In this document: positions 3 to 54,219 of the stretch, one piece after another | How the letters are laid out: every line of letters starts with the position of its first letter | Position numbering within the stretch: the first letter of the stretch is position 1 | DNA from: a virus | Lineage: Duplodnaviria; Caudoviricetes | Direction: 5' to 3' (one strand) | Virus record (IMG/VR): IMGVR_UViG_3300050011_000298 | Span: 1-59,098 of that record | Length of the DNA: 59,098 bases | The notes under the pieces: model-generated | Database searches by the model: none | What the model was told of the DNA's origin: nothing | Seen by the model: the letters and a program-made list of their open reading frames with translations, nothing else | Translations under genes and position numbers: made by a program

Positions 3-3000
3 TCTGCGGCCTTTTTTGCGCCAGGAGCGACGGGTTCATTTTCCCCATCTTGGAGCACAGGCACTATGGGTATCACCGTCGCCCTCAAATCCGTCGGGAG
101 CGCAACGGTCCTTGTGGGTGTGAGTCCGCCAGTCGGAACTATCATGCGGGTCTATTATCATCTGCCCGCAGGTACTGGTCCAGGTTTCACTGGTCCGACC
201 GAGCCCATTTGGCCCACATCTATTGGCGGCATCGTCAACGACGGCGGAATTCAATGGACAAATTACGGGCCTGTCGAAGTCTGGTATCCGCAAACAAATT
301 ATCCAGTTCCTGTCGTGGTGTTGGATACGAACGGAAATTTGCAGCGCGCGGTTACTGCCACGAGTCCTGTACAGCCGTGGAATGCGGCAACTGGATATAC
401 TGTCGGGCAGATTGTTTCGTTCGGTGGGGGTTTTTGGATTAGCGTGTTTGCGGGAACCAATACAGGTGTTGCGCCGAGCAGTAATTATACGGTCCTTGTT
501 GGGGGGACGACAACAACCCCATATTGGGCTGTGGCGTCAAATCCCGCCGTCACAGGAGCCATCGCTCCAGTATGGAATACAAACGCCAACCCGCTGTTGG
601 GCAGCATCACGACCCAGGACGGCAGCTACACCTGGACCAACCTCGGGCAAGGTTCTCCGCTCGCGAGTTTCGGATATGCGTACGTCTACGCTTTCCGAAC
701 GGTGTACGGACATCTGACAACAGCAAGCCCGTTCAGCAACAATACTGGCGCGATTCTCGGACCACTGAACGGCAGCATTCAGTCGTTTTCCATCACCGCG
801 AATGTCGCGACGTTTTTCGGCAGCAACAACTTTATTCCTGGGAACATCTTTACGGTCGAGGGGTTGACGACAGGCACTTATTTTAACAACCAGATATTTA
901 CTGTCCTGACCGCACAACCGTCCTCCAGCTTTCCGTTGACCTCGACGCAAATCAGCGGCGGTACTACTCTAACCGTCAAAGCCATCAATCTTTTAGTCGC
1001 AGGACAGAGCGTGACATTCAGTAACTTGACGGACCCGAGCGCAACATGGCTGAACGGGTTGACGCTGATTGTGTCGGCGACAGGATTAAGCGGCACGCAG
1101 TTCGAAGTGACAGGGACATCTCCTCCTGCTGGAAACTACGGCCCGACGGCCACGACAGGCACAGTGCTCCTGAACGGAAGCTGGACTGCGACTTTCAACA
1201 ACGGTGGCGTGTTTGTACCGTTGACTTCGGATTCTGGGACTGCGGCTCCGCTTATCTCAACCATCACGGGCCAGGGCACATCTTTGCTAGATGGCCAGGG
1301 ATTTTCGTTGTGCAACTCCGTCGCAACCATCACAGGATTCTCAGTGACCGCGAACGTCCTGACGATTTTCGCCAGCAACAATTTCCAGCCTGGCATCTGG
1401 GTCACCCTCGGAGGTTTGACTACCGCGACGTTTCTGAACGGTCAGCAGTTCCAAGTCATCGCGGTAGATCAGTCGCTCGGAACCCAGAACACATGGTTTC
1501 AAATATTTTTTACGACTTCCGACTCGGTGCAGACGCTCGACGGAGGCACCGCTACATTCAACGCGGTGGAAATATATCGTCTCTCGGATGGCGGCGGCAC
1601 CTATTTGTTTGATGGCGCGGTCACGAACCCAGGCGCAGGAATTCAGTGGACCTTCGACGACTTTGTCATCGATCCTGATCTGGATATTCTTTTGATTGCT
1701 CCACTGTTCCATCAGAACGACCCGCCTCCTGGCGCACCTGGTTCATCCATTCCGCCGCTGGGCAAACCTGTAGGTACTATCAGCGTATACTGGCAGGGAC
1801 GGCTCTGGATGGTTGACGGAAACTATGTGTATTTCGATTCAGGACCAGATTGCACGAACGGTATTCCCGAGGAAGCGTGGGCTCCTGGGAATCGATTCAA
1901 GTTCTCAGGACCTGTGCTGAATCTGCAGCCAACTGCGGACGGCATCGGGATGCTTGTTTTCTTGGCCGACCGCGTGCAAGCAATTCTCGGCGGACCTGAG
2001 ACTATCAGCTTCTACGCTACAGATTTTTTGAGCAACTTCGGCGTTTCCAGTACGAACGCTGTCTTCCGCGACGGCTCGATTATTGGTTTGTTTACCACGC
2101 AGAAGCAGTACTTTGAATTGCTGGGCGCGCAGAAAGAAGATGTCGGGCTACATATTTCGGATTACTTGGCGACGAACGTCAATCCCGCCAAAGCGTATGT
2201 CACACTGCACCGTGACGGAACCGATGTGGGTTTATTCATCAGCAACGGCATAGACCGCATTTTGCGCTACGGGCCCAACGTCCCGTCATGGAGCGTTCCT
2301 GCGTTCCCATTATTCGGAGTAGGCGCGCTGAAATCGGTCGAGACATCGGTTGGAATTTATAGTTTACTGTTAGCGACGCCGACGGGCGGGGTGCGTCCGA
2401 CAAATCCGCAATTAGGGGTTGCAGCTACATACGCCCTTCTGGCGTGGAGCGGAATTACCAACACAGGCAGCACCGTGATTACGGGCGGCAACATCGGTTC
2501 GAGCCCGACCACAACCATTACAGGATTTCCTCCAGGCGTGATTATGTCCCCTGGGATTATCGACAATACCAACGCGGCTGCAGCGCATACGGCAGCGGTC
2601 GCGGCATACGCGCACTACGCTGGGTTGACATTCACCTCGCTCGGGACGGCTGTGAATTTGGCGACAAGCGGGAACGGCGCAAACAGCCATACATATCTTG
2701 CTGGAAATTATAGCTCAACATCCAGCTTCGACATCCCGAACACGTTCGGCGGGATAGTTCTTGATGCGCAAGGAAATGCGAACGCCCAGTTTGTGTTTTT
2801 CGCTGCGTCGACGACCACCCTCGAAGGCGGCTCGACCATCGCACTCATCAACGGCGCGCTTGCAAGCAACGTCATTTGGGTGGTCGGCAGTTCTTTCGTA
2901 TCCGTTGCGCCTTCGACTATGGTGGGGACAATCTTGGCGCAGATTTCTATCACACTGGGCGGCGGCACTTTTAACGGGATCGCATTGGCGGGCCTTGGCG

Positions 3001-3545
3001 GAAGTTCTGGCGCAGTGACAATCTCTACCGCCGAAATTATCTCGACAGGCAACACCCAGGCTCAATTGGACCAAGGGAATTATATCTATGTCCGCGATCT
3101 GACTTCATGGGGAGATGGCAACACCATAATCGGCGCCAACGACGGCACACCGTACGCACTTTGCGAAGTTGTCATCGGCAGCATCACGATGTCGCAACTC
3201 GGCGGAAAATTGTTCCCGTTGCAACATGTGATCGGATACTTCGACGCAGTCGGCACACTCAACCATGGCGGCCCGTCTTATCCCGACATCTGGGTGCTGC
3301 CGAACGAAGTCCAGCCCACCACCGCCGTCCCGTTTGTTTATTTGCCTGAGATTGTGCAAGAGCCCCCGACTGGGCAAAACAATCCGTCGTCCTCTATATT
3401 GGCGTTGAGGTGGAATGTATCAATGGTAAATAGTACACAGATGAGTCAGTATATTCACCACATGCAGTGCCGCGTTCGATTCGAGCCAGAAAACGCGCCG
3501 AATACAATCAAGGCGCTGGCGTTCGGTGAGGACCAATCGGTGTAA
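3..3545 (+). CDS. Large virion tail protein (5'-truncated) with a carbohydrate-binding-like motif, FCCH-like repeats and an inserted DUF3494 ice-binding-like domain
   Basis: Frame is open from the window edge (ORF track starts at 66). Thr/Gly/Ser-rich; WNAATGYTVGQIVSFGG motif; three N.F..G..VT..GLT...LNG..F.V repeats; propeller-like WQGRLW region; DUF3494 motifs at ~2406-3042. Precedes GNAT-like and ejection-like genes. Confidence 0.75.
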   Translation, partial: SAAFFAPGATGSFSPSWSTGTMGITVALKSVGSATVLVGVSPPVGTIMRVYYHLPAGTGPGFTGPTEPIWPTSIGGIVNDGGIQWTNYGPVEVWYPQTNYPVPVVVLDTNGNLQRAVTATSPVQPWNAATGYTVGQIVSFGGGFWISVFAGTNTGVAPSSNYTVLVGGTTTTPYWAVASNPAVTGAIAPVWNTNANPLLGSITTQDGSYTWTNLGQGSPLASFGYAYVYAFRTVYGHLTTASPFSNNTGAILGPLNGSIQSFSITANVATFFGSNNFIPGNIFTVEGLTTGTYFNNQIFTVLTAQPSSSFPLTSTQISGGTTLTVKAINLLVAGQSVTFSNLTDPSATWLNGLTLIVSATGLSGTQFEVTGTSPPAGNYGPTATTGTVLLNGSWTATFNNGGVFVPLTSDSGTAAPLISTITGQGTSLLDGQGFSLCNSVATITGFSVTANVLTIFASNNFQPGIWVTLGGLTTATFLNGQQFQVIAVDQSLGTQNTWFQIFFTTSDSVQTLDGGTATFNAVEIYRLSDGGGTYLFDGAVTNPGAGIQWTFDDFVIDPDLDILLIAPLFHQNDPPPGAPGSSIPPLGKPVGTISVYWQGRLWMVDGNYVYFDSGPDCTNGIPEEAWAPGNRFKFSGPVLNLQPTADGIGMLVFLADRVQAILGGPETISFYATDFLSNFGVSSTNAVFRDGSIIGLFTTQKQYFELLGAQKEDVGLHISDYLATNVNPAKAYVTLHRDGTDVGLFISNGIDRILRYGPNVPSWSVPAFPLFGVGALKSVETSVGIYSLLLATPTGGVRPTNPQLGVAATYALLAWSGITNTGSTVITGGNIGSSPTTTITGFPPGVIMSPGIIDNTNAAAAHTAAVAAYAHYAGLTFTSLGTAVNLATSGNGANSHTYLAGNYSSTSSFDIPNTFGGIVLDAQGNANAQFVFFAASTTTLEGGSTIALINGALASNVIWVVGSSFVSVAPSTMVGTILAQISITLGGGTFNGIALAGLGGSSGAVTISTAEIISTGNTQAQLDQGNYIYVRDLTSWGDGNTIIGANDGTPYALCEVVIGSITMSQLGGKLFPLQHVIGYFDAVGTLNHGGPSYPDIWVLPNEVQPTTAVPFVYLPEIVQEPPTGQNNPSSSILALRWNVSMVNSTQMSQYIHHMQCRVRFEPENAPNTIKALAFGEDQSV

Positions 3546-3549
3546 AGGT

Positions 3550-4032
3550 ATGACCAAAGAATCCGAAATCATTCGCGCAGTTGTCCACCCAGGAGCAAAT
3601 ACAATTTCTCCTGTGATTTGGCCTGCCGACAGGCAGAAATCTCAGCAGATTGAGCAAACCAAGGTAACCGCGCGCCCGCAAGCAGTGTTTGCTCTGCCGA
3701 CCACACAGCCCGCGACTGCGGTCGTTGCTCCGCGCACGACACCTCCCGCTGTGACTAATGTGCGGGTTGTGACGCGGAAAGCCATCGCGGGTCAGAAAAC
3801 GGTCACGATTCAGTTTACGCATCCGAGCAATAGTCCATACTTTCAAGGCGCCTCCGTCTATTTGAAGCGGGCGGGCGGTCAACCGACGCAAGTGGCCTCG
3901 GGGAATAAGTCTCCATTATCGTTTACTGTGCCCGTGAACGTCGCGTCTCATGCAATTCACGTTACGAGCTACGGGCCGAGTGGTGAAGGAAATGTCCTAA
4001 CTGCACCATCCGCGCCAGTTAGGTTAGTATAG
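3550..4032 (+). CDS. Virion-associated protein with a C-terminal FN3/Ig-like segment
   Basis: ATG at 3550 follows the upstream stop; PPAVTNVRV...TIQFTHP...YLKR...HVTSYGPSGEG resembles fibronectin type III. Confidence 0.5.
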   Translation: MTKESEIIRAVVHPGANTISPVIWPADRQKSQQIEQTKVTARPQAVFALPTTQPATAVVAPRTTPPAVTNVRVVTRKAIAGQKTVTIQFTHPSNSPYFQGASVYLKRAGGQPTQVASGNKSPLSFTVPVNVASHAIHVTSYGPSGEGNVLTAPSAPVRLV

Positions 4033-4594
4033 CGAGGTGAGCACGAAGACTAGAGATTTCGTCACGCTGACGGTCAATTTCATCTTCCATGGCTTGTGGG
4101 TTGCAATGAGGGTGGGTAAAACCGAGCGGTTGGCCTGTTGTGTGACTGTGATGGAGATGGGGCGTTTTACCTACACCAAACTCCCAAGTTAAAGGTTGAC
4201 CGCAGCGTTCGCAGTCGGGTTCAGCCATTATCGTTCGAATAATTGAGTGGGGCGTATCGCAAGGGATAGGTTTATGGTTGCGTTCGCGTGCTTTGCGTCC
4301 AGACGACTTCAAAATATGTGATACGCGGCACCAATAGTTTCGGCTACTCGCACAGGCGAACTGATTAGACTGTCCCAGTCGTTCTGGTAAAACGCCAGAG
4401 CAACCGCATGGAAATGTAAAAGGTTGGCCAGGGTGCTGGGAATTTCGGCGAGGATATCCGTTTCGGATTCTACGATAGTCGCGCCAGCATGATTTGCATT
4501 TGGAACATCGACCATATTTGCCGCGTCGCATAGGAGAGAAATCTGCGAGAGGCTTGGAGATACCACATTTTTTACATACTTTATTCTTTGTCAT
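4019..4594 (-). CDS. Homing endonuclease, endonuclease VII/HNH-like
   Basis: N-terminal CKKC...CSKCKSC zinc motif; C-terminal CERC...HLHHSHTTGQPLGFTHPHCN. Confidence 0.75.
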   Translation of the reverse strand: MTKNKVCKKCGISKPLADFSPMRRGKYGRCSKCKSCWRDYRRIRNGYPRRNSQHPGQPFTFPCGCSGVLPERLGQSNQFACASSRNYWCRVSHILKSSGRKARERNHKPIPCDTPHSIIRTIMAEPDCERCGQPLTWEFGVGKTPHLHHSHTTGQPLGFTHPHCNPQAMEDEIDRQRDEISSLRAHLAILT

Positions 4595-6526: not shown

Positions 6527-8260
6527 ATGGCTGAAACTCAACCACAAACACCGCCCGCATCCGTGCCAGAAGCAATGGCACCGCCCGATGTCCAGTACAG
6601 GACACCGTCAGATGCCCCAGCGGCTGCTTCGAACCCAGCGGCTGCTTCGAACCCCAACGCGATTAATCCTGCAGGACAGCCTGTAGCGCCCCCCGCACCC
6701 CCGCCACCGCACGCACGCTTGCTGTCGATGGTGCAAGGGCTGGCGGATGGACTTTCCGCCGCTGGTAAGTCTCTATCTACAGGAGGGAAAGAAGGCGGTG
6801 CCGAAGAAGTTCAACAATTGCAAGCCCAGCGGCAACAGATGAAACAGTCCGCCGTCGCTTCTGCGCAAGCGCAAACAGACGCGGAACTCCGCAATAAACT
6901 GACGACCGCACAGACCAACCAAGCGAACATCAACAATCACATACTGACCGCCACAATGCCTGATGAAATTTCCCTGTCGCACATGAAGGTGCCCGAGGCT
7001 CAGACGAAACTGGCTGGCGAACAGCAAGGTCAAGCCATCGCAGGCGCGGATTTCCAAGCGCAACATGGAGGCATGACGCCTACGCAATTTAATTCCGCAT
7101 TGGCTGGAACAACACCCGCTGCGGGTGCAACAGGCGCGAGCGCATTTTTCACGACCAACGCGCAGCAGCAACTCGGGGCTGCTCAGAAGATTTTGGGAGC
7201 ACAGGACCCATACGTTCAAAAATTGCAGAGCGCGCTCGCTGATCCGAAGGCTACACCAAAAGATTTATGGACCGCGACTTCGCAAATTCAAAATCAAGTG
7301 GCTCTGCAAGAGAAGGCGACTACTGCGCAGACTCAAAAGAACGCAGCGGACCCGCTCTACAAATTGGAAACTGACCCGAGCGAAATGACAGGAGATAAGG
7401 CGCCCGCCGCCGTCGCACTTCTCTCGTCAAAATTGACGGACCCAAATCTTTCGGCAGACCAAAAACCGCGCGTGCAAAGATTGTTCGGGATGGCTCAGAA
7501 GGCACAAGCGAACGCGCTGACGTTCGATAAAGCTAAAGAGACCGCGAAACAAACCATCACGGACGGTGACCCGAAGGCTGCGGGCTCATTGCTGCAATCT
7601 GGATTGGTTTCTCCGCAAGAACTTATTTCGTCGCGCAAGCCTGCGTTCGCGCAGCAAGCGTTCGATGAAGCGATTCGGCTCGGCGGCGGAACAAAAGGCG
7701 CGGACGGTAAGTGGACTGGTGGAACATGGTCCGCTACTAAGGCTGAGTCGCAATACGATTACGCCAAGAACCCGAAGACACAGAACACTCTCAACTTGCT
7801 CACAACGATGCAGAATCCTGGTGGCAGCATTGATATCGCGCAGAATATGTTCAAGCAAATTCCAGGCAAGATTGATGAAGGCACATTCAATAAACTCGTA
7901 ACAGGCGCACAGACAGAATTCGGTGGCGTCAGCACCGTAGATTTCAAAGCGGCTATGACTTCCTTGGCCGACGAATACGCGCAAGTTTTGCAGGGCGGCG
8001 CGGCGACAGAAACCACATTGAGCCAAGCCAAGGATTTAATCAAACAGGCTTATACCGCAAGTCAAGGGTCGGGCGCGTTCGACACCATTCGGTTGGATAT
8101 GGCTGCTCGGCAAAAAGGCATGGTCCGTGACAATCCCGCGCTGATGTCGATGTATCCATCTCCCGCAGCGGCTCCAGCAGGTGCGTCCAACGAAGTATGG
8201 GTCGGCGGCAAACTGACAGGGCATGTGGTTGGAAATAAATACGTGGCGCTCGGACAGTAA
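6527..8260 (+). CDS. Putative ejection (DNA transfer) protein
   Basis: AAGGA RBS; Ala/Gln-rich coiled-coil-like sequence; operon context. Confidence 0.6.
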   Translation: MAETQPQTPPASVPEAMAPPDVQYRTPSDAPAAASNPAAASNPNAINPAGQPVAPPAPPPPHARLLSMVQGLADGLSAAGKSLSTGGKEGGAEEVQQLQAQRQQMKQSAVASAQAQTDAELRNKLTTAQTNQANINNHILTATMPDEISLSHMKVPEAQTKLAGEQQGQAIAGADFQAQHGGMTPTQFNSALAGTTPAAGATGASAFFTTNAQQQLGAAQKILGAQDPYVQKLQSALADPKATPKDLWTATSQIQNQVALQEKATTAQTQKNAADPLYKLETDPSEMTGDKAPAAVALLSSKLTDPNLSADQKPRVQRLFGMAQKAQANALTFDKAKETAKQTITDGDPKAAGSLLQSGLVSPQELISSRKPAFAQQAFDEAIRLGGGTKGADGKWTGGTWSATKAESQYDYAKNPKTQNTLNLLTTMQNPGGSIDIAQNMFKQIPGKIDEGTFNKLVTGAQTEFGGVSTVDFKAAMTSLADEYAQVLQGGAATETTLSQAKDLIKQAYTASQGSGAFDTIRLDMAARQKGMVRDNPALMSMYPSPAAAPAGASNEVWVGGKLTGHVVGNKYVALGQ

Positions 8261-8269
8261 GGACTTACC

Positions 8270-9688
8270 ATGGCTGCGACACCAAACGATATTCAAGGAC
8301 TTCCTGAAGGAGCGGTGCTGAAGCCAATCGCTTCGCAGCCCGCTGTCGACCCATCCCAGATTCAAGGATTGCCCGCTGGCGCCGAGTTACGACCGATTGC
8401 AGGCGCACCCGAAGCGCCGCCTGACACCTCAAGCACGTTGAGTAAGGTCGGTGACTTTGCCAAGGGTATAGGCGAAGGCGCTGTCTCAAGCATGGGGGAG
8501 ACGATTCAATCCTTACCGTGGGTCGGGAAGAGAATCCTATCTCCCGAAGCGATGTCTGCAGAACGCGAATATTTTCGACCAGGCTCGGCGGCTGAGAAGC
8601 ATGGACAGACCACAGGCGACATAGCCGAACCCGTGCTGGAGTTTGTGATGGGCGACGAAGCCCTCAAAGGTTTGGCAATCGCGGACAAAATAGGTATCGC
8701 AGGCAAAATAGCTAAAATAGCTCAAGACTCGCCGTACATCGGCAAAATTCTTCAGCACGGCGTTAACGCTGCCCGTACAGGGACAGTCGGAACGACCGAA
8801 GCACTTGCTAAGGGTGCAACTCTGCCCGAGGCTTTGAAGACGGGCGCGGGTGTCGCGGTCGGTGGAGAAGCGTTGAGCGCCGCTGCAGATGCTGTTGCGG
8901 CCCCCGCAGGGTCAACCGAAGGGTTGATGACGCGGCTGACGAATCCATTTCGAAAATTAATTCAGACGCAGACGGCCAGCCCTGCAGCCGCAGGCGAAGC
9001 TGTATCTCAGCCGATAGCGCAGGCAGGGGTAAAGGCGACGGCCCCGACGGTCGGCGCAAGTTTACGGTCAGGTATTGATGTGGAGACTCCGCTCGCCGCC
9101 GCCAAGAAATTATATCAGACGGTTGACGACGCCGCGAAAACGGACTTCAAAGTTTTGTATGACAAAATGGATGCCGCTCAAGACGCGGCACGTATCGCAG
9201 CGCCTGGGTCGCCTGAAGAGGCGGTTGCTCAACGCAATATTAAAGCCACGCAGGATTCTATCGACGAACATAAAGCCATCGCTGCCCGATCAGGCGTGCC
9301 GAATGTCGACAAGACATTGGCGCAAGCGGATGCGAAATTTGCTGAGACACAAGCCAATAAAGATTTTAACAGCAAGTTTTTCGGGAGTCAGGGTGTGATT
9401 TCGGGGAACGTCGCGCACAGTGTTCCTGAAAAGATTGATGTAGATGCCGCGATTAAAACTTTGGAGAATTTCGATAAGCCGAACAAATTCGGAATTTCTC
9501 GCATGCAGCAGACATCCTTGGGTAAGGATGGAGCGTTCAAATTGAAACAAGTTCTCTACGACGCGCAGAAGGCGGGGCAGACTGCTATGGATTCCCGCGC
9601 ACTTCGGAATACCGTATTGAAATTAGTCGGCATTGGTGGCGGCGTAGCAACAACTGCCGCAGGCGCAGCCTATGAACTTACGAAATAA
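8270..9688 (+). CDS. Putative ejection/internal virion protein
   Basis: TAAGGA RBS; duplicated IQGLP.GA.L.PIA at the N-terminus; Ala/Gly-rich. Confidence 0.6.
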   Translation: MAATPNDIQGLPEGAVLKPIASQPAVDPSQIQGLPAGAELRPIAGAPEAPPDTSSTLSKVGDFAKGIGEGAVSSMGETIQSLPWVGKRILSPEAMSAEREYFRPGSAAEKHGQTTGDIAEPVLEFVMGDEALKGLAIADKIGIAGKIAKIAQDSPYIGKILQHGVNAARTGTVGTTEALAKGATLPEALKTGAGVAVGGEALSAAADAVAAPAGSTEGLMTRLTNPFRKLIQTQTASPAAAGEAVSQPIAQAGVKATAPTVGASLRSGIDVETPLAAAKKLYQTVDDAAKTDFKVLYDKMDAAQDAARIAAPGSPEEAVAQRNIKATQDSIDEHKAIAARSGVPNVDKTLAQADAKFAETQANKDFNSKFFGSQGVISGNVAHSVPEKIDVDAAIKTLENFDKPNKFGISRMQQTSLGKDGAFKLKQVLYDAQKAGQTAMDSRALRNTVLKLVGIGGGVATTAAGAAYELTK

Positions 9689-10329: not shown

Positions 10330-10374
10330 ATATTACAGGTGTTCCATATCCTCGGTCAATGGTACGAAGGTACT
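10330..10374 (-). promoter_or_regulatory. Sigma70-type promoter with upstream GTAC-N4-GTAC box
   Basis: Minus strand reads AGTACCTTCGTACC-A-TTGACC-18 nt-TAATAT. Confidence 0.7.
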
Positions 10375-10870
10375 AGAGAAGATTTGCGGAGTCTATCTTT
10401 CGCCATTCTCGAAGGATCGGAGCCAGTTCCATCATCCTAGCATATGAGATGTGGGCACCTTTGATGCGATTACAGGCACCACAACAAGGCACCACATTAT
10501 AGCAACGGTGCCCTTGGGAGTTATCCAGGGCGTCGAGACCAGACCCAAAGATGTTTAGTGTCCCTTGACAATAGTGGCAGGTTTGGTCAGCGACAAGAGC
10601 GCGATAAAACTGGAATCTCCACAGCAAATCATCAACAGGGACATTCTCTTTTTTAAGGATATGTCTTAGAACGTAGTGTTTGTTCTTTGGGGCGGAGTTG
10701 ATTGTTTTTTTGGTTTTCTGAGCCCTTGGTTTTTTGCTGTAATCTCTATTATACTCCCGAGTGTGGGGCACAACGCAGGGCGGGCAATACCTTTGGTTGG
10801 GGCCTAATCTAAGAAAACCTGTTTCGCATCGGATGCATCGAATCATCATAATAACGACCTCTTTTCGCAA
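10373..10870 (-). CDS. HNH endonuclease
   Basis: CHYC...GLDALDNSQGH..YNVVPCCGACNRIKG; own TTGACG-17-TACAAT promoter. Confidence 0.85.
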   Translation of the reverse strand: MRKEVVIMMIRCIRCETGFLRLGPNQRYCPPCVVPHTREYNRDYSKKPRAQKTKKTINSAPKNKHYVLRHILKKENVPVDDLLWRFQFYRALVADQTCHYCQGTLNIFGSGLDALDNSQGHRCYNVVPCCGACNRIKGAHISYARMMELAPILREWRKIDSANLL

Positions 10871-17707: not shown

Positions 17708-18286
17708 TCACGATTTCCTCCCGGCGAGTGCCAGAATTTTGCTGACATACGTGCCGTCATAGGCATCTGACGCGGTGCCTGTTCCGTTGTAATGGCGGAC
17801 ACCCGCCTGCAGCCCGTACTGCTTGATGAATCCTTTGAGAATCAGGGCGCCGACGTGTAGATTCTCACCAGGGTTGAAGAGATTGACTTTCGTGAAGTCG
17901 AACTTCTCTTTCCAAACGCGAGGCATAATTTGCATCCGACCTATCGCGCCGTGATTGCTGACCGCCAGGGGATCGCACGATGACTCGACGGCCATGGTTG
18001 CCGCCAGGACGCGCGGGTCCAGTTCATCCGCGATGGCTTCGGTTGCTACGTCGCTGATGGTCTGGGGGTCGATGTTCTCGCAACCTTGCGAGCGACCGAA
18101 GACGCGCGCCACATCGAGCGCGGCGACATATTGCTTGGTCAGAATTTCGGATTGGATGTCCCGCGTGACTGGGGGCAACGGACGAACGATAGGAGGATTC
18201 TGGCGAGGGGCGTGAAACACAATCGCAGCACCCACTGTCAGAATCACTGCAACCAAAAGTACCAAGGCGACAAATTGGTTTTTCAT
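17708..18286 (-). CDS. Lytic transglycosylase (SLT) with N-terminal TM/signal anchor
   Basis: AVESS.DP.AVS..GAIGRMQIMP...NL..G...L......YNG. Confidence 0.9.
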   Translation of the reverse strand: MKNQFVALVLLVAVILTVGAAIVFHAPRQNPPIVRPLPPVTRDIQSEILTKQYVAALDVARVFGRSQGCENIDPQTISDVATEAIADELDPRVLAATMAVESSCDPLAVSNHGAIGRMQIMPRVWKEKFDFTKVNLFNPGENLHVGALILKGFIKQYGLQAGVRHYNGTGTASDAYDGTYVSKILALAGRKS

Positions 18287-18295
18287 GTTGTTCTC

Positions 18296-18724
18296 CTAGA
18301 GTAGATTGTCGTACCGAGCCAGTTCTTGGTTGGCCCATTTTCTATACAGGCGTATCGACCATTTGCGAAACTCGTCATCAGTCATATCGTTTTTGGCGAT
18401 ATTGCAGTCTGTGCAGCACGGTCGAACATTTTTCATGATGTATCCAATCGTCGGGTCGATCCGATCTAGTCCGTGACCGTTTGCGGGAAGATCGCCGCCG
18501 CAATAGTGGCACGGTTCACAGTAAAGCGTGCGATACTCGTCGAGGGTAATATCGCACTGTCTCCCTCTTGTCTTTGCTGCATTTTTTAAGCACGAGAATC
18601 GATACGTATCTGGATGCTTTGCGTGAGAGCGTTGACGAACGGTTTCGACGGCGTCTGGGTGGTTGTCACGCCACTTTTTTGCACGCCGTCGACCCGCAAT
18701 CCGTTTGTGGAGCGAGAGTTTCAT
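18296..18724 (-). CDS. HNH endonuclease
   Basis: CHYCG...GLDRIDPTIGY...NVRPCC..CN.AK. Confidence 0.88.
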   Translation of the reverse strand: MKLSLHKRIAGRRRAKKWRDNHPDAVETVRQRSHAKHPDTYRFSCLKNAAKTRGRQCDITLDEYRTLYCEPCHYCGGDLPANGHGLDRIDPTIGYIMKNVRPCCTDCNIAKNDMTDDEFRKWSIRLYRKWANQELARYDNLL

Positions 18725-19438
18725 TTAGAACACATCGTACTCATGATTTTTGTGACGTGGGAATTCTAACAGAAGTGAGGCCGTGACCCCACCACCAAAT
18801 GCAGTGGCTCGGGGGCAAGGTCCGCCATTAGGTCCACCTGTTACTCCGAATGTTGAGTCGCAGATGGGGTTTCCTTGGGTTTTTACCGCGCCAAATACAA
18901 AGTCTTCCGACGTGCGGACGCAGAACGCGCCGACACACCCGAATCGCGCAGTAAACCCGAAGTCTGCGCCTTGTAGATGACTAGATTCCAGTCCTGATGG
19001 ACTGATCCCATTATTAAATTGCCTGATGTAATCGAACGAGAATCGTGCAGGTAATCCGCCGACGACCGCGCGATAGGTGAGCCCGCCGAAAGCATAGTCC
19101 GCATCCTTCGTCACTTTCGTGACGTTGTAGGCAGAGTCTTCGACGCGACCGTTAATTCCCCACGACGGACTGAACCAAATCTGCCCGCCCACCGATGCGA
19201 TGTTTGCACGGCCAGCGCCGAGCGAGACATGCGATTCGATAGGAGAGAAGGTATCCTGCAGGTCCAGTTCATAGTGCTTGGCGAACGGCACTTCGAGCCC
19301 AGCTTGAACGCCGAAGCTGTAGTTGTCGAAGCTATCGCCGCCAGACGCGCCGAGCAGAACGCGGGTCTGTGCGTTCGAGTGCGCGGGGATCAGGAATGCA
19401 ATAAATAAAGCGAGTACAATCAGGATTCTATTTCTCAT
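18725..19438 (-). CDS. Secreted, probable outer-membrane beta-barrel protein
   Basis: GGAGG RBS; signal peptide; alternating amphipathic strands. Confidence 0.55.
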   Translation of the reverse strand: MRNRILIVLALFIAFLIPAHSNAQTRVLLGASGGDSFDNYSFGVQAGLEVPFAKHYELDLQDTFSPIESHVSLGAGRANIASVGGQIWFSPSWGINGRVEDSAYNVTKVTKDADYAFGGLTYRAVVGGLPARFSFDYIRQFNNGISPSGLESSHLQGADFGFTARFGCVGAFCVRTSEDFVFGAVKTQGNPICDSTFGVTGGPNGGPCPRATAFGGGVTASLLLEFPRHKNHEYDVF

Positions 19439-19482
19439 GTTGCCTCCAAAGGACCGCTTAGCGGCGCGGGGTGCCGACGAAA

Positions 19483-20343
19483 TTAATACTTTTCTGCTTC
19501 GATGCGCGAAATGAAAAAATGAATGCCGCCTCCGCACTCTACCCAACGGTCTTCATTCCAGACGTTGCAAGTGACGGTCTCGCCTTTGCGATAGGTAGTT
19601 TTGTTGTCGTGCGTTGAGATGCCGACTTCGGCCCCAAATACTTGAATTACTTTGACAAATTCGGCTCGGCACTTGCGTCCCGAAGCATTTGATTTGCGGG
19701 CTTTGGCTGGAATCAAAAGTTTGACAATGATATTGTTTCGGCATTTTTTCCAGCCAATGATTGGACCTTCAGGTAAGATGTTCAACTCTGCAGCAGCCCG
19801 TTCGGGGATATTCTCGGCTCCGTACAGGACGGCTCCGTTCAGGTCGGCTCCGTTCAGGTTGGCTCTGTACAGGTTGGCTCCGTTCAGGTTGGCTCCGTTC
19901 AGGTTGGCTCCGTTCAGGTCGGCTCCGTTCAGGTCGGCTCCGTTCAGGACGGCTCTGTACAGGTTGGCTCCGTTCAGGTCGGCTCCGTTCAGGTTGGCTC
20001 TGTACAGGTTGGCTCCGTTCAGGTCGGCTCCGTTCAGGTTGGCTCTGTACAGGTTGGCTCCGTACAGGTTGGCTCCGTACAGGACGGCTCCGTTCAGGTT
20101 GGCTCCGTTCAGGTTGGCTCCGTTCAGGTCGGCTCCGTTCAGGTTGGCTCTGTACAGGTTGGCTCCGTTCAGGTTGGCTCCGTTCAGGTTGGCTCCGTTC
20201 AGGTCGGCTCCGTTCAGGTTGGCTCTGTACAGGTTGGCTCCGTTCAGGTTGGCTCTGGCTTTTACCGCAGCAACAACCAAATCTTTGATGGTATCGACAC
20301 CCGCTGAATATAAGATCAGTCCATAAATTGATTTTAATTCCAT
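19483..20343 (-). CDS. Pentapeptide-repeat protein with C-terminal DUF5758-like domain
   Basis: About 29 A(N/D)L(N/Y)(G/R) repeats; IVKLLIP..A.RS.A.GRKCRA...W.EC.GGIHFF. Confidence 0.9.
   Translation of the reverse strand: MELKSIYGLILYSAGVDTIKDLVVAAVKARANLNGANLYRANLNGADLNGANLNGANLNGANLYRANLNGADLNGANLNGANLNGAVLYGANLYGANLYRANLNGADLNGANLYRANLNGADLNGANLYRAVLNGADLNGADLNGANLNGANLNGANLYRANLNGADLNGAVLYGAENIPERAAAELNILPEGPIIGWKKCRNNIIVKLLIPAKARKSNASGRKCRAEFVKVIQVFGAEVGISTHDNKTTYRKGETVTCNVWNEDRWVECGGGIHFFISRIEAEKY
19816..20256. repeat. 15-bp tandem array (GGCTCCGTTCAGGTT variants) encoding the pentapeptide repeats
   Basis: Near-perfect 15-mers seen directly. Confidence 0.95.
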
Positions 20344-20365
20344 TTGCGTTGCCTCCATGTAAATC

Positions 20366-20409
20366 ATTATAGGATAGAAGTCTGAAATTAGCAATAGTAC
20401 GAAAGTACT
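20366..20409 (-). promoter_or_regulatory. Sigma70-type promoter with GTAC-N4-GTAC box
   Basis: AGTACTTTCGTACT-A-TTGCTA-17-TATAAT. Confidence 0.75.
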
Positions 20410-20444
20410 GGGGCCAGGCAAACTGAACCTGACCCCGTACTTGA

Positions 20445-21665
20445 CTAGCGGACGTATATTTCGACGGTTCTGGCGGTGCCCGTACCGGATGTGACATCGA
20501 CTCGCTGAGCGGCGACACCGATGCGGGTCAATTGTTTCTTGACATTCTGTGCCCGCGCCAGCGTAGCCGATGAATCCTCCTGGGGGTTGCGATTGCCAAC
20601 CAACAGGATAGACGATTCGGGGTGAGTCTTCAAAAGTTGCGCGACCGCCGCCAGCATTTTTTCGCAGACGGTAGTGACGCGCAGCGGATTGGTGGATGAA
20701 ATCAGAGCGCAGGTTTGCCCTGAACTGAATGTGCAGATGCCGACGAGTTGTGCTTCTGGCGCAACAGGCACGTCAGGTTCGGGCACAACAACGGGCTCGG
20801 GCACTTCGACGACAGGTGCAGGGACGACCACAACAGGCGCCACGACGACGGGCGCGGTGACAGCGATGATGACAGGCTCAGGCAGGCAATCGGCCAGCGT
20901 AACGCCAGCCTTCTTGACATACTTGTCCGTCAGCAGCACCTTGCACTGAGCGAGACGACTGACGCCATTGAACGCTCGGGCGGTCTCTAGTATCGCGCAG
21001 TTCTCGTCGATCTTCCCGCCACCGAAACTGACACCCAAAGGCGCGGTCTGTGCGCTGCCGCCAAAACCTTTGAAGCATGTTACGGTCGGTAGAATCGGCG
21101 GGGTGATCGCGGACGCGACAGGAATTTTAGGCGCCGCGATGTTCGTCGTCGAATCGTTCGAATTATTTCCGTTGCCGACACCGTTGCCAGAAGCGGAAGA
21201 TGCGTTGTTGTTGGAGGATGTGTTCGATTGGGTTTGCTGTTGACCCTGCGATTGCTTTTGCTTCTGGTCATTGCTGGTGTTGACAGAATTCAGATTCGTG
21301 GAGTTGCCTGAGTTACTGACACCTGCCGTCGAATTTGAATTGCTGGTTGCCGTCCCACCTGTTGCGGTGGCCGAGGCTTTGTTGTTGTTGGTGTTCGCAT
21401 TATTGTTTGCGTTCGTGTTCGCGTTCGAGTTGGTATTGGTGTTGGTGGTCGGGCTGGTCGTCGATGGCGGCGGAAGAATTTCGCATTCAAACGTCAGACC
21501 GCCGTCTACTACTATCTGGCCGAGCCCATCGCCTGTACCTTGCGCTGTGACCGTTCCGTTTGGAACCTGGACACGGATCGCGTTTGGTGTGGTGCAGTTC
21601 CATGCAAATGCGGGAGAGATTGAAGCGAAGAACAGAATTACTCCGAACAGAAATTTCTTACACAT
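20445..21665 (-). CDS. Secreted protein with Asn/Thr/Ser linker and C-terminal OmpA-like domain
   Basis: Signal peptide; L..VA.LLK.HP...ILLVG...RAQNVK..L...GV...RV. Confidence 0.7.
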   Translation of the reverse strand: MCKKFLFGVILFFASISPAFAWNCTTPNAIRVQVPNGTVTAQGTGDGLGQIVVDGGLTFECEILPPPSTTSPTTNTNTNSNANTNANNNANTNNNKASATATGGTATSNSNSTAGVSNSGNSTNLNSVNTSNDQKQKQSQGQQQTQSNTSSNNNASSASGNGVGNGNNSNDSTTNIAAPKIPVASAITPPILPTVTCFKGFGGSAQTAPLGVSFGGGKIDENCAILETARAFNGVSRLAQCKVLLTDKYVKKAGVTLADCLPEPVIIAVTAPVVVAPVVVVPAPVVEVPEPVVVPEPDVPVAPEAQLVGICTFSSGQTCALISSTNPLRVTTVCEKMLAAVAQLLKTHPESSILLVGNRNPQEDSSATLARAQNVKKQLTRIGVAAQRVDVTSGTGTARTVEIYVR

Positions 21666-24401: not shown

Positions 24402-25016
24402 ATGGCGGGCTATACAAAAGCACAAAGACGGGCGCAGCAATCTGCCACAGCAGGGCATCGGTGCGGGAAACTCATGAAGAAAGGGCTCATGACTGAGCGG
24501 CGACCCTGCATGCTTTCAGTTAAGCATGGCGGATATCATTCTCCTGACTTGATGGGCATGCGGTTCCATAACTTGAAAGTTGTTGCTGTGGGGACGCCGC
24601 GCGTGCGGCGCATAGGGAGCCCTTTATTCACATGGACATGTCGCAGTCTTGCAGGACACGTTCATCCAAACATTGAAGTGCATGCGCTTCTGTTTGGGAA
24701 GTCACAAGGAAGGCACGTACCATATGGACTGGGATATCTCAATGCGGGCGGGTATCGTAAAATTCGGTATGATGGTCGCCAAATGTTGGAGCACCGTGTC
24801 GTTATGTCCAAAATCCTCGGGCGGGCGCTTCGTTCGGACGAGCATGTCCATCATGGCCCGAAGGGTCGCGCCTGTAACGACCCCGATAATCTAAGCATTC
24901 GACTTGTAGGCAAACATCCCCAGGGACATAGCGTTGAAGAACTGGCGGATTGGTTGCGTGGTTTGGGATGCATAGTGGAAATCCCAACCCATCTTTTAGA
25001 TTGGAGTGTGTCATGA
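24402..25016 (+). CDS. HNH endonuclease (HNH_3-like)
   Basis: GYR....EHRVVM...LGR.L...EHVHH......NDPDNL; TTGACA-17-TACTCT promoter at 24355-24383. Confidence 0.85.
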   Translation: MAGYTKAQRRAQQSATAGHRCGKLMKKGLMTERRPCMLSVKHGGYHSPDLMGMRFHNLKVVAVGTPRVRRIGSPLFTWTCRSLAGHVHPNIEVHALLFGKSQGRHVPYGLGYLNAGGYRKIRYDGRQMLEHRVVMSKILGRALRSDEHVHHGPKGRACNDPDNLSIRLVGKHPQGHSVEELADWLRGLGCIVEIPTHLLDWSVS

Positions 25017-35295: not shown

Positions 35296-36882
35296 ATGTC
35301 AAAGATAGTAAAGCATGGAGCAGATGCACGAGATGCGATTTTGCGCGGTGTGAATTTTCTCGCGGACGCGGTTTGTTTAACGGAAGGTCCGAGAGGCAGG
35401 ACCGCAATTCTCGGGCAACGTGCGTTAGGACAAACTCCTAGAGTGTCAAGGGATGGGGTGTCTGTTTGCAACTATGTGGATTGCGCCGACCCAACAGAGC
35501 AGATGGGGTCTGACCTTGTTCGCGAAGCCAGCCAGAAAACGGATAATATTGTCGGAGACGGCTCCACCGCCACCGTCACTCTCGCTCGCGCAATGATTCA
35601 ATCTGGTTTTGACTTCATCAAGAACGGTGCAAACCCTATAGCCCTAGAGCGCGGGCTGCAGAAAGCAGCACAAGCAATCATCCGCCGCGTGCAAGAAACT
35701 GCGGTGATATGCGAGGGTGAAAAAATTTTTCAAGTGGCGACGGTTGCGGCCCACGGGGATGCGGAGATAGGCCGCCTTGTATCCGACGCGGTTCAGAAAG
35801 CTGGGCCAAACGGTATTGTAACCGCCGAACCATCTTCCACATCTGAAACTTATGTCGAGACAGTAGCTGGAATTGAGTTGTTGAAGTCGAATCTTTTGCA
35901 CGGCGTTTTTATCACGCACCCTGAAACAATGTCGGCTGAACTGGCCGACTGTCGCATCTTGTTATGGGAGGGTGTGATTGCCACGGCGAAGTCACTCGTG
36001 CCGATTTTGAAACAAGTCGCAGAGACAGGCACCCCGCTGATTATCGTTGCGGGCGGCTATGAACAGGAAGCCTTATCGGTGCTCATCAACAACAAGGCGA
36101 AACTTGCCTTGCCGCTGATTGCCGTTCGGATGGAGGCATACGGAGAGCGCAAAAAAGAAGTTATGAGAGACATCGCCGCGTTGACAGGCGGTATAGCTTA
36201 CACCGAAGACATGGGGATGAAGATTGAAAGTATCGTCGTGAATAAACTTGGCTCTGCGCGCAAGGTCATCACGAATATGTCCAAGACCCAGATTATCGAT
36301 GGTAAAGGCAATCAAGCAGAAGTGGCTGGGCGCGTGGCGCATATTCAACAATGCATCGAGGCTGCCGCCCCTGCAGAGCGTAATCCCCTGCGCCAGCGTC
36401 TTGCGGCGCTACTCGGAGGCATTACCGTAATTAAAGTGGGCGACGTAACTCTCACGGCCATGGAAGAAAAGAAAGACCGCGTTGTTGATGCAATGTCTGC
36501 GGCGAAAGCTGCGGTCGAATCTGGAATCGTTCCTGGTGGGGGCACCGCATTAATGCAGGCGTCCACCATCCTCTTGGGGTTGCGTTTTTCAGATGCCGAG
36601 ATGCGCGGGGTAGATGTAGTGCATATCGCATGTCGGGCCGTAGCGAGACAAATTGCCGAGAACGCAGGAATCAGCGGCGACCTTATTGTGGCTCAACTGA
36701 TGGCAACACCAGACCTGGGATATAATGCGGCGTCCGAAGTATTTGAAAATCTCGTTGACGCGGGGATTGTCGACCCTGCACAGGTTGTGATTGAGGCTCT
36801 ACGAAACGCTGCCTCTGTCGCAGGAAGTTTCATCACTATGGGATGCACTGTCGCAGAGGTTCAGGAGAAGCCCAATGTCTAA
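35296..36882 (+). CDS. groEL: Phage-encoded chaperonin GroEL
   Basis: GPRGR, SRDGVSV, GDGSTAT, EKKDRVVDA, GIVPGGG, GIVDP. Confidence 0.97.
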   Translation: MSKIVKHGADARDAILRGVNFLADAVCLTEGPRGRTAILGQRALGQTPRVSRDGVSVCNYVDCADPTEQMGSDLVREASQKTDNIVGDGSTATVTLARAMIQSGFDFIKNGANPIALERGLQKAAQAIIRRVQETAVICEGEKIFQVATVAAHGDAEIGRLVSDAVQKAGPNGIVTAEPSSTSETYVETVAGIELLKSNLLHGVFITHPETMSAELADCRILLWEGVIATAKSLVPILKQVAETGTPLIIVAGGYEQEALSVLINNKAKLALPLIAVRMEAYGERKKEVMRDIAALTGGIAYTEDMGMKIESIVVNKLGSARKVITNMSKTQIIDGKGNQAEVAGRVAHIQQCIEAAAPAERNPLRQRLAALLGGITVIKVGDVTLTAMEEKKDRVVDAMSAAKAAVESGIVPGGGTALMQASTILLGLRFSDAEMRGVDVVHIACRAVARQIAENAGISGDLIVAQLMATPDLGYNAASEVFENLVDAGIVDPAQVVIEALRNAASVAGSFITMGCTVAEVQEKPNV

Positions 36883-43983: not shown

Positions 43984-44715
43984 ATGTTCATCTACGTCAT
44001 AGTTTGCAGCGAGACCCTGAAGATTTACGTCGGGCAACACAAGGGAACCAATCTGCAGAAATATTTGCAGACCAAGTTCTCAAACGCGAAGAGAAACTCA
44101 GGGACGCGGTCTCACCTTTTTGCGGCAATGAAAAAACACCCTCACGAATCGTGGAGCATTCATCCACTTATCTCAGGCGTTGAAATCAGACAAGAACTGG
44201 ATGAACTAGAAAAGCATTTCATCCGAGCGTTGAACGCACAACATCCCGATGTCGGTTATAACATCTGTGACGGCGGCGAAGGTTTCACGGGACCCCATAC
44301 AGAGAAGTGGCGACAAGAAACACTCACGCGAGTCAATGAGTATTGGGCAAATCCCGATAGTCGGATGCAGCGAAGCCAACAAACTACAGAACGCTGGCAA
44401 AGCGGCGAGCTACGAAAGGCGCACGAGATTTGGCGAGCAGAGAATCCAGAAAAGTTGGCATATTGGACGGATAAAAAACAGTCCGCCGAGTCCAACCAAA
44501 AACGCAGCGAGCAACAGAAAATATCTATGTTAGGGAACACGAACAGGCTTGGGCAAAAGCAGTCGCCTGAAGAAATAGCCAAGCGGGTCGCCAAATTGAA
44601 AGGTGTCCCGTTTTCCGACGAGCGCAAAGCCAAACTGAAAGCGTCGCACCAGACTTGCTCTTGTCCCGCGCATGTGCTGAAGCGTCAACAACAAGACTTC
44701 TTAACCCATAAGTAG
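43984..44715 (+). CDS. GIY-YIG homing endonuclease with NUMOD3-like repeats
   Basis: FIY......KIYVGQ...E..FI.......GYN...GG; KQSAES..K.S. Confidence 0.88.
   Translation: MFIYVIVCSETLKIYVGQHKGTNLQKYLQTKFSNAKRNSGTRSHLFAAMKKHPHESWSIHPLISGVEIRQELDELEKHFIRALNAQHPDVGYNICDGGEGFTGPHTEKWRQETLTRVNEYWANPDSRMQRSQQTTERWQSGELRKAHEIWRAENPEKLAYWTDKKQSAESNQKRSEQQKISMLGNTNRLGQKQSPEEIAKRVAKLKGVPFSDERKAKLKASHQTCSCPAHVLKRQQQDFLTHK
44694..44713 (+). promoter_or_regulatory. Putative late promoter (copy 9)
   Basis: AGACT tcttaacc CATAAGT overlapping the end of the GIY-YIG gene. Confidence 0.75.
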
Positions 44716-52688: not shown

Positions 52689-53684
52689 ATCATACTCCCT
52701 CCAGGTGTTCAGAGTACCACCCTAGCAGGATTTCCTCAGATCGCTTACGAGCGGACTGCGATCATGGAATGGCAGTTCAACACTCCGTTTTTGGAGGAAC
52801 TCTGCGACTTCCGTCCTCTGGCTCGGCGTTCAGGCCGGACGCTTCAGTTCTACGGACAGACTCCGTTCGCTGCCGCGACTTACGATCTGACCGAAGGAAT
52901 TCCTGGTCCGTCGCTCCAACTGAACCAAGTGTTCAGCGATGCATTCGCCGACGAATACGGCGACTGGATCGGCGTCTCGAACGTCGCTCAGCAAATGTTC
53001 CTCGCGGACATTACGTTGGACGCTACCCGCAACCTGTCTTATCGCGGCGCGCTCACAGCCAACCTGATCGCGATTAACGCTTTCGAAGCAGCCTGCGTTG
53101 CGCAGCCCTCGGGCCGCATCGACCTGCTTGACAACGAGTACATGCTTTCCAACACCATCCGCAAGGCCGAGTCCCAGTTGATGGGCAACGCGGTCCCAGG
53201 ACGTGACGGCGGGCTGTACACAAGCGCAATGCATCCGTACGTTGTTTATGATTTCATGTCCGACAACTCAGCCGGGTCGGCTGTTGACACACTGAAGCGT
53301 TCGGAATCGGGCGCCACAGTTTTGAAGACAGACATGACACGTGGCTACTCGGTACTCGAATGGGCGGGCGTTCGCATCATCCGCACCCAGACGACACCGA
53401 CGTATTCCAACTACCCCTCGACCGGGAAGACTGGATACGCGACGTACATCGTGGGACGCGAAGCTGTTCTGGCTTCCGAACTGCTCGGCGTGAAAGTTCC
53501 GCGCAGCCCCAGCTTCAAGGTGAACGTCAAGACGTTCGGCGACGGCGACATCGATCTTTCGAACCCGATGCTCCAGACCCGCGCGATTGTTTCTTACGAC
53601 TGGTTCCTTGGCGTCGTTGCCCGCCCGAACACGAACAATACACCAGGGTTTCGGCGTGTAAGGTCTGAGGTTTCAGCCGTTTAA
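52689..53684 (+). CDS. Major capsid protein (N4-gp56-like), probable ATC start (first ATG at 52764)
   Basis: PL....GRTLQF, LTEG.P, EYGDW..VS, Y...MHP.V.YD, W.GVRII.T patterns; strong codon bias; AAGGAG lies 7 nt before the in-frame ATC 52689. Confidence 0.85.
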   Translation: MILPPGVQSTTLAGFPQIAYERTAIMEWQFNTPFLEELCDFRPLARRSGRTLQFYGQTPFAAATYDLTEGIPGPSLQLNQVFSDAFADEYGDWIGVSNVAQQMFLADITLDATRNLSYRGALTANLIAINAFEAACVAQPSGRIDLLDNEYMLSNTIRKAESQLMGNAVPGRDGGLYTSAMHPYVVYDFMSDNSAGSAVDTLKRSESGATVLKTDMTRGYSVLEWAGVRIIRTQTTPTYSNYPSTGKTGYATYIVGREAVLASELLGVKVPRSPSFKVNVKTFGDGDIDLSNPMLQTRAIVSYDWFLGVVARPNTNNTPGFRRVRSEVSAV

Positions 53685-53751: not shown

Positions 53752-54219
53752 ATGCCTTACAAAGACCCGAACAGCCCAGCAGCCAAAGCGAGTGATAAGC
53801 GGAAACACAAAAAGTATCTGGACACGCACGGCGGATATGCGGCAGTCACAAAAGATTATCTGTCAAGACATCCAGATGCGTTACGAAATGCGTACTACAA
53901 GCACGAGCACGGCATTTCGGTAGTAGATTTTGAAGCGCAGATTGTGAAACAAAACAATCTGTGCCCCATCGGAAATCACCCCTTTGGGCCTCGTGGCAGG
54001 CGCGGCGACTCGCCCTGTCAAGACCACGACCATGAAAGCGGACAGAACAGATTGATTCTCTGCCGCAATCATAATGTCGCGCTCGGGTTGTTCAACGACT
54101 CAGTCGAAGACATGCAACAAGGAATTTTGTACTTGCAATCTTTTGAGAAACACATAGGAGAACTACCGTGCCGAACGCATCTACCATCCGACGCCAAATT
54201 GCTGGAGTTCAGCAACTGA
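53752..54219 (+). CDS. Endonuclease VII-family homing endonuclease
   Basis: Q.NLCPI...DHDHESG..R.ILC..HN.ALGLF.D; paralog of 30235..30645. Confidence 0.88.
   Translation: MPYKDPNSPAAKASDKRKHKKYLDTHGGYAAVTKDYLSRHPDALRNAYYKHEHGISVVDFEAQIVKQNNLCPIGNHPFGPRGRRGDSPCQDHDHESGQNRLILCRNHNVALGLFNDSVEDMQQGILYLQSFEKHIGELPCRTHLPSDAKLLEFSN

Follow-up and report, generated by a model that had tools for sequence, protein, structure and literature searches.

The single-domain DUF3494 (IBP-1) proteins with solved structures come from cold-adapted cells, in which they are free, secreted or located at the surface, and their activity has been measured; they include AnpIBP (7BWX/7BWY), EfcIBP (6EIO), IBPv (5UYT), FfIBP (4NU2), LeIBP (3UYU), TisAFP (3VN3, 5B5H) and ColAFP (3WP9). 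Domain insertions and cassette swapping are well known in phage tail proteins, and in the solved podoviruses a nozzle protein forms, in six copies, a ring around the DNA channel beneath the portal and adaptor. Here we analysed a DNA stretch of 59,098 nucleotides (nt) from a tailed virus (Duplodnaviria; Caudoviricetes; IMG/VR record IMGVR_UViG_3300050011_000298), hereafter called the window. Its first open reading frame (ORF 3..3545) was found to carry a complete DUF3494 domain, inserted as an exchangeable cassette into a probable podovirus tail nozzle. The insert belongs to the same Pfam family (PF11999) as the solved proteins and is predicted to share their solenoid with a long helix, at 21-34% identity across the set. 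Unlike them, it is an internal domain of a 1475-residue phage structural protein and falls in a separate, phage-type clade.

Two other groups of solved proteins are comparable to this locus. SfIBP_1 of Shewanella frigidimarina (6BG8, deposited as 'Ig domain protein'; E 5e-8, Z 15.7) is presumably an ice adhesin, in which DUF3494 forms the binding tip of a larger protein attached to the surface; it is a cellular protein with an Ig-repeat stalk, whereas the carrier here is a phage tail protein. The propeller core of the carrier resembles those of SU10 gp17 (7Z47/7Z4B), T7 gp12 (9JYZ), P22 gp10 (8U10) and the crAss001 muzzle (7QOK). In contrast to these nozzles, to which no sequence similarity was detectable and of which none among the matches listed has a DUF3494 cargo, the insertion point here serves as a cassette site across the population, and is either empty or occupied by one of at least two unrelated kinds of cargo. 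DUF3494 itself is also known; the novelty lies in how the known parts are combined and in the population picture. Neither the literature on DUF3494 and ice-binding phage tails nor the collections of phage genomes and viral structures that we searched gave an example of a complete ice-binding-type fold that is one among several exchangeable cargoes at a defined site of a podovirus nozzle and comes from a phage-type pool. PF11999 genes on polar viral contigs share with our locus the family, the viral DNA and the cold setting, but they were read as host cryoprotection, whereas the domain here lies in a putative virion protein; this comparison is by description only (Rahlff et al. 2024, PMC11515562).

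The original prediction placed a DUF3494 segment of ~210 residues at 2406..3042, and this segment proved to be real, although slightly shorter than the insertion delimited by homologues. In the 1180-residue frame, hmmscan matched Ice_binding (PF11999.13) with E 1e-29 and 104.1 bits against a gathering cut-off of 28.7 bits, over fragment residues 813-1012 (nt 2439-3038) and nearly the whole profile (positions 2-207 of 208). A six-frame search of the record gave the same place (E 4.5e-33, 109.6 bits), with no stops. When the 229-residue insert was compared with PDB sequences using phmmer, 23 chains were matched, all of them DUF3494 ice-binding or antifreeze proteins, with 6EIO (1.1e-19) and 7BWX (7e-18) as the best. 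Fragment residues 560-1180 were modelled with AlphaFold2 on a 74-row alignment, with a mean predicted local distance difference test (pLDDT) score of 75.9 and a predicted template modelling score (pTM) of 0.55. In the model the DUF3494 domain (residues 241-464) is predicted to be a beta-solenoid with one long alpha-helix at 299-314, and its last coils (406-461) had pLDDT <50. This agrees with the family fold, an irregular right-handed solenoid flanked by a long helix. The model superposed on AnpIBP 7BWX with Z 18.1 and a root-mean-square deviation of 2.5 Å over 182 residues, and 24 further DUF3494 entries (25 including 7BWX) gave Z 15.6-17.9. By profile score and predicted fold, the insert is a complete member of DUF3494/PF11999.

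The database protein P0002 (1475 residues) is the complete, 100% identical form of the carrier; the window fragment begins at its residue 296, and the first 295 residues are absent from the ORF. We compared P0002 with 120 proteins from a homologue search, probing for the two flanks with stretches of 151 residues ahead of the segment and 155 residues behind it. Both flanks were found in 96 proteins, P0002 included, and all 96 kept the main part of the propeller. The site between the flanks was effectively empty in 36 proteins (0-13 residues), held DUF3494 in six (P0002-P0007; 223-230 residues), and held a non-DUF3494 module in 17 (163-171 residues) and 37 others (262-631 residues). Because close relatives such as P0008 join residue 1091 to 1321, the insertion was set at P0002 residues 1092-1320, that is nt 2391-3077. 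P0008, which is 74% identical in each of the two flanks, has two residues between these positions, and the cassette-less close relatives have 0-2 residues at the junction. Ten further proteins had the N flank only, and three of them (P0102, P0107, P0108) carry PF11999 right after the propeller. The alignment thus confirmed what had been proposed from the sequence, an insertion relative to homologous tail proteins.

All 54 non-DUF3494 inserts formed one BLAST cluster, consisting of an alternative module of ~165 residues with or without further nested domains, up to 631 residues. This module resembles the N-terminus of the P0002 family (~125 residues; 34-39% identity in P0038, P0043 and P0047), and in one protein (P0025) the insert encloses Laminin_G_3, a ConA-like lectin domain. 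A search of the ESM Atlas with the ~165-residue module gave only unnamed viral clusters at 0.85-0.86, below the meaningful level. The site is a cassette hot-spot that can be empty or filled from at least two unrelated families of cargo.

The fold of the carrier was examined with Foldseek and VIA-align. Apart from DUF3494 entries, the best Foldseek matches were podovirus nozzle or tail chains, with cyanophage A4 (9k09_U) on top (E 4.6e-8), followed by Pa223 (9nwi_Y), SU10 (7z4b_DW and 7z47_G), Pan3, VP1, GP4, T7 (9jyz_P), E1004 and Pam1; from A4 to E1004 these nozzle or tail chains had E-values between 4.6e-8 and 3.6e-5. VIA-align gave Z 12.4-15.0 for Pa223, GP4, SU10, Carin-1, the crAss001 muzzle, P22, Sf6, VP1, Pan3 and Pam1. 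Most of the propeller alignments spanned model residues ~5 to ~490 and so started before and ended after the DUF3494 domain; 23 propeller rows ended at residues 482-492 and three at 609-618. Since the alignments to known propellers cross the DUF3494 domain, the propeller is predicted to resume after the insert, in agreement with the earlier proposal that the segment sits between two parts of one propeller-like region of a tail protein. A module displayed on the virion is then the natural reading.

The genome context was also that of a short-tailed phage, with a SU10_portal match, a large terminase and a major head protein in the window. Among 50,697 GenBank phage records, Tunturiibacter phage Tunturi_3 alone matched both the nozzle region (32% identity over residues 596-796 of the ORF) and the portal (22%), and it was the sole match of the full ORF. 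Tunturi 3 is a 97.6-kb podovirus with an Arctic Acidobacteriota host (PMC11924767). Its homologue gp19 (18182-21592 of the phage record) sits among genes annotated as tail fiber and tail assembly, and the ~134 residues that follow its matched propeller part are consistent with an empty cassette site. By fold and context, the carrier is probably a member of the podovirus nozzle structural class, with no sequence family. The propeller of SU10 has two openings: one lies at the closing blade 1, and the other, between blades 2 and 3, takes up four Ig-like nozzle domains; blades 1-3 point away from the channel (PMC9509320). By analogy with SU10, and given that inserts of up to 631 residues are tolerated, the cassette would be expected on the outside of the tail. 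The C-terminal beta-rich domain may correspond to the second half of a platform domain, judged by the domain order of SU10 (PMC9509320).

The position of the domain also bears on whether it could serve as an auxiliary metabolic gene, whose ice-binding product would be made in the infected cell and cryoprotect the host. Such a role has been published for three PF11999 genes of viral operational taxonomic units from Arctic surface waters (PMC11515562). In our case the domain is no separate gene: it is in frame within the 1475-residue structural protein, with propeller on both sides, and the cassette-less relatives join the same flanks almost directly. We therefore regard host cryoprotection as very unlikely here.

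The source of the module was sought with the insert alone, which retrieved 173 longer proteins. We retained 130 sequences, the window insert included, in which the domain covered at least 170 residues. Seventy of the other 129 domains shared at least 50% identity with the insert, and many of the seventy belong to proteins of ~402-430 residues with a common N-terminus and C-terminal domain. One of these, a 411-residue protein whose DUF3494 is 51% identical to the insert, is encoded at 707-1942 of an IMG/VR viral contig (L003) that also encodes a DUF3494-bearing nozzle. In the model of this 411-residue relative the DUF3494 part was well resolved, and the C-terminal domain had pLDDT of about 50-70. 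The window has a DUF3494 copy only in the nozzle, in a record that is 59% complete. A metagenomic protein of 1569 residues (P0109) has a DUF3494 domain 64% identical to the insert and ends in a phage tail-sheath C-terminal domain; the cassette would therefore also be present in contractile-tailed phages.

In a FastTree phylogeny of the 130 domains (222 columns, midpoint root), the sequences at least 47% identical formed one clade, apart from cellular-type multidomain proteins. Identities were at least 47% within this phage-type clade and at most 46% to the rest of the set. The six close nozzle inserts made up one clade beside two of the ~410-residue proteins (P0125, P0126), and the domains of P0102, P0107, P0108 and P0114 were placed elsewhere in the tree; their position suggests that DUF3494 was captured more than once. 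Judged by these sequence relationships, the module is drawn from a phage-type DUF3494 pool that is also present in the ~410-residue phage protein.

Outside this pool, the closest cellular matches in one pattern-based scan were 36-44% identical, and came from two metagenome-assembled genomes of Bryobacterales and from Planctomycetota, Actinomycetota and Hyphomicrobium. PF11999 was moderately common in the phylum of the closest cellular match, being over its cut-off in 39 of 301 sampled genomes; because this prevalence comes without habitat information, it does not discriminate ice from other ligands. With the insert as tblastn query, none of the 50,697 GenBank phage records was matched at E <= 1e-3, and the cold-soil isolate Tunturi_3 had no PF11999 match. 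With the model of the 411-residue relative as query, three fold matches were found in BFVD at E <= 0.001. All three were proteins of a giant virus (Hyperionvirus sp.) and no tailed-phage protein was among them; unlike the carrier, these are not tail proteins and belong to eukaryotic giant viruses. A further viral DUF3494 protein was seen on a contig with a nucleocytoplasmic large DNA virus (NCLDV) major capsid gene at 109-1890 (L004): its 700-residue product (7173-9275) combines BNR/sortilin-like repeats, DUF3494 and an intein-like Hint domain.

We then looked for the stretch in other assemblies. Setting aside the possible source run, near-identical DNA was found, at a threshold of at least 0.2 of the sampled words, in 12 runs belonging to 11 studies, all of them labelled as peat (nine) or permafrost (three) metagenomes. 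The habitat suggested by the sample metadata fits the original prediction, with the limit that a peat label gives no temperature. The junctions of the insert were checked in four of the runs. In X2 a single contig of 1353 nt (1798-3150) spans both junctions with 0 differences, and in X4 each junction is spanned by contigs with 0 differences. Contigs of X6, which has a permafrost label, also span both junctions, reaching 31 letters on the shorter side of the right one, and contigs of X3 span the left junction. Among the run contigs no listed joint skips 2391-3077; single-contig joints were seen elsewhere in the gene (1729-1951, 3085-3190 and 3195-3265), with 85% likeness each. No RNA data set was listed as containing the stretch.

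These contigs bear directly on whether a bacterial DUF3494 gene and a phage gene had been joined by chimeric assembly, a suspicion raised by the start of the contig within the nozzle gene. Both junctions are spanned without differences in contigs from other runs and studies, the reading frame has no interruption, and the same architecture is seen in L003 and in five further proteins of the database, whose identity over residues 560-1180 is 69-83%. An assembly artefact is thus extremely improbable.

Compared with the relative L003 (98% protein identity), the insert had 34.5 synonymous and 5.5 non-synonymous differences. The ratio of non-synonymous to synonymous substitution rates (dN/dS) was 0.049; the insert is under purifying selection and its sequence is maintained. 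Along the gene (window 1692-3542) dS against L003 rose in steps, being 0.049 for the propeller, 0.22 for the insert and 1.49 for the C-terminal part. In this one sequence pair, the steps point to recombination near the domain borders and to a mosaic gene. The genes upstream of the nozzle in L003 have only scattered matches to the window, and their order differs.

In AnpIBP the ice-binding face was mapped by mutagenesis to the B face, where S153Y and T156Y left 17% activity; seven segments are listed for this face, about 70% of its outward residues are A/G/S/T, and the ice-binding site is without a repeat motif (PMC7277481). The small and hydroxyl-rich B face of the insert aligns with this experimentally mapped face. 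At the mapped outward positions 21 of 27 residues were T/S/A/G, as compared to 114 of 211 over the whole domain. The strand of AnpIBP S153 aligns with a conserved Ser-Ser pair, in which S167 is Ser in 64 and S168 in 67 of the 71 phage-type sequences. The equivalent of T156 (insert V170) is Val in this phage and Thr in 67 of the 71. The mean entropy of these outward B-face positions in the same 71 sequences was 0.90, compared to 1.19 for the rest of the domain (permutation p 0.03). As far as the alignment tells, the putative ice-binding face is intact and maintained in the insert.

One consequence, in line with the original prediction, would be a virion that binds ice, in which six nozzle solenoids adsorb the particles to ice or locally inhibit recrystallisation in seasonally frozen or permafrost peat, so that the particle is protected or is kept in the liquid films where hosts sit. 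All matched solved relatives are ice-binding or antifreeze proteins (21-34% identity, Z 15.6-18.1), the S153 strand of AnpIBP aligns with the conserved Ser-Ser, and the share of small and hydroxyl residues on the B face is near to that of AnpIBP. The runs with near-identical DNA are all labelled peat or permafrost, and several virion-type proteins of related phages also contain the module. However, ice binding in the DUF3494 family is not predicted by sequence alone (PMC7277481, PMC7783341), and this phage has Val at the position equivalent to T156. Other modules occupy the site in 54 of the 96 homologues and 36 have it empty, the cold-soil isolate Tunturi_3 lacks a PF11999 match, and the peat labels are silent on temperature. 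It is also doubtful that few copies per particle would affect bulk ice. DUF3494 proteins have been reported from the tropics and from hot springs, and in the same report they were suggested to bind varied substrates, with a consensus of 172 sequences showing the same hydrophilic array (PMC7783341). The earlier statement that DUF3494 spreads among cold-habitat microbes was in this respect too narrow. We consider it possible, and rather unlikely, that the particle itself is an ice binder by means of its six nozzle solenoids, together with copies of the ~410-residue protein where this is carried. If it were, no earlier virus particles would be known whose own structural proteins let them adsorb to ice or withstand freeze-thaw damage, and the virions of a widespread peat and permafrost phage group would have a measurable ice affinity. 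The phage-type pool would in that case carry ice-binding modules from one virion protein to another, and perhaps from host to host.

The solenoid could also be a tolerated folded passenger in a permissive loop, which has no ligand of its own and perhaps makes the tail stiffer or shields it. Lengths from 0 to 631 residues are tolerated at the site, and with 36 of 96 homologues lacking an insert no cassette is essential. On the other hand, the low dN/dS means that the insert sequence is maintained, the outward positions of the B face are more conserved than the rest of the domain, and the placement of P0102, P0107, P0108 and P0114 in the tree suggests repeated capture and not one accident. Passive decoration is thus improbable, although less so than a host-directed product or a chimeric assembly.

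The explanation we prefer is that ORF 3..3545 encodes the tail nozzle, or hub, of a short-tailed phage distantly related to the Acidobacteriota podovirus Tunturi 3, with the DUF3494 cassette acting as an accessory adhesion domain; we give this about an even chance. The point just before the propeller-closing strands is a cassette site at which whole folded domains are exchanged by recombination within the phage clade, and the present cassette is a complete DUF3494 beta-solenoid from the phage-type pool. About six solenoids would project from the rim of the tail, and their flat, conserved, Thr/Ser-rich B face could hold the particle on an ordered, hydroxyl-rich surface. With a lectin-type alternative, an empty state in a third of the relatives and recombination at the borders, the site looks like an exchangeable adhesin or receptor-binding position. 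A putative ligand in the host envelope, in slime or in another polysaccharide matrix is quite plausible, though short of an even chance, and somewhat likelier than ice, which we hold as a tentative candidate; the remainder falls to no ligand or another one.

Several observations weigh against the adhesive nozzle. The nozzle assignment is drawn from a predicted fold, and eukaryotic WD40-type propellers scored nearly as high (Z 12.4-13.9), so that the fold alone does not single out nozzles. The whole ORF matched 0 families in PHROGs and no Pfam tail family, and the family profile against PDB sequences gave no nozzle, the only hit being a sub-threshold chitin-binding domain (E 0.058). The nozzles of SU10 and T7 have no detectable sequence similarity to each other (PMC9509320), and for this reason a missing sequence-family match neither excludes nor supports membership. 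In GenBank Tunturi_3 gp19 is labelled 'head decoration protein'; by the fold of its relative and by its neighbours this only cultured homologue is more likely a tail nozzle. With pTM 0.55 and pLDDT <50 at model residues 406-461, the model places the solenoid against the propeller only tentatively, and the predicted exposure of the B face is equally tentative. The B face was mapped by hand from one HMMER alignment, with the last strand (beta6) re-registered by eye. Its conservation is modest, p being 0.03 in the phage-type set and 0.06 in all 130 sequences, and could reflect structural needs of the solenoid. The selection estimate, finally, comes from a single sequence pair.

A surface module on the virion is a testable alternative where viral DUF3494 genes are annotated as ice-binding auxiliary metabolic genes. 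These abundant soil phages also offer a natural experiment, in which one scaffold comes with no cargo, with a lectin-type cassette or with DUF3494. Either result would be informative about the substrates of DUF3494 proteins outside cold habitats.

The IMG/VR virus record that makes up the window is linear and represents a fragment of a tailed-phage genome, with a CheckV completeness of 59%. Its features are listed in Table 1. The contig begins within the nozzle gene and ends within another open frame, and the two ends do not join. A circular genome with the nozzle gene spanning both ends was considered and rejected, as the 3'-open ORF at 58059-59096 has nothing in common with the N-terminal residues of P0002 that the window lacks.

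Table 1. Features of the nozzle-like gene and of the remaining window (fragment, residues of the ORF 3..3545 product; model, residues of the AlphaFold2 model)
Feature	Position (nt)	Strand	Remarks
Tail nozzle-like structural gene (probable)	3..3545	+	5'-truncated at contig start; 1180 codons + stop in window
N-terminal and middle region	3..1691	+	Fragment 1-563; repeat-rich
Beta-propeller (predicted), main part	1692..2390	+	Fragment ~564-796; model ~5-237; pLDDT mostly 80-96; start approximate
DUF3494 cassette, 229 residues	2391..3077	+	Fragment 797-1025; P0002 1092-1320
Propeller-return strands (predicted) after insert	3078..3155	+	Fragment ~1026-1051; model 467-492; boundary approximate, pLDDT partly low
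C-terminal beta-rich domain	3156..3542	+	Fragment ~1052-1180; C flank of cassette site, conserved in homologues
Pentapeptide-repeat protein with C-terminal DUF5758	19483-20421		Pentapeptide E 1.3e-55
IS1595-family transposase within phage genome	29108-30025		DDE_Tnp_IS1595 E 4.8e-42 and its zinc ribbon
GroEL-type chaperonin, phage-encoded	35296-36882		PHROG 5725 E 2.8e-115; Cpn60_TCP1
Large terminase (TerL)	45652-47586		
Portal	47631-49871		Pfam SU10_portal match
Major head protein	52764-53684		
Homing-endonuclease-type genes	4019-4594, 10373-10870, 18296-18724, 24402-25016, 43984-44715, 53752-54219, 56866-57468		

Within the nozzle protein's N-terminal part a sub-threshold CBM_5_12 match (E 0.29) was seen at nt 378-440 (fragment residues 126-146), and at positions 305-345 of profile A1 the PDB comparison gave the chitin-binding domain of chitinase A1, not significant at E 0.058. 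The window also has an unusually dense set of homing-endonuclease-type genes (endonuclease VII/HNH, GIY-YIG and NUMOD-like), and several of them lie between structural genes. In L003 genes of this type are found at other positions, among them directly downstream of its nozzle gene.

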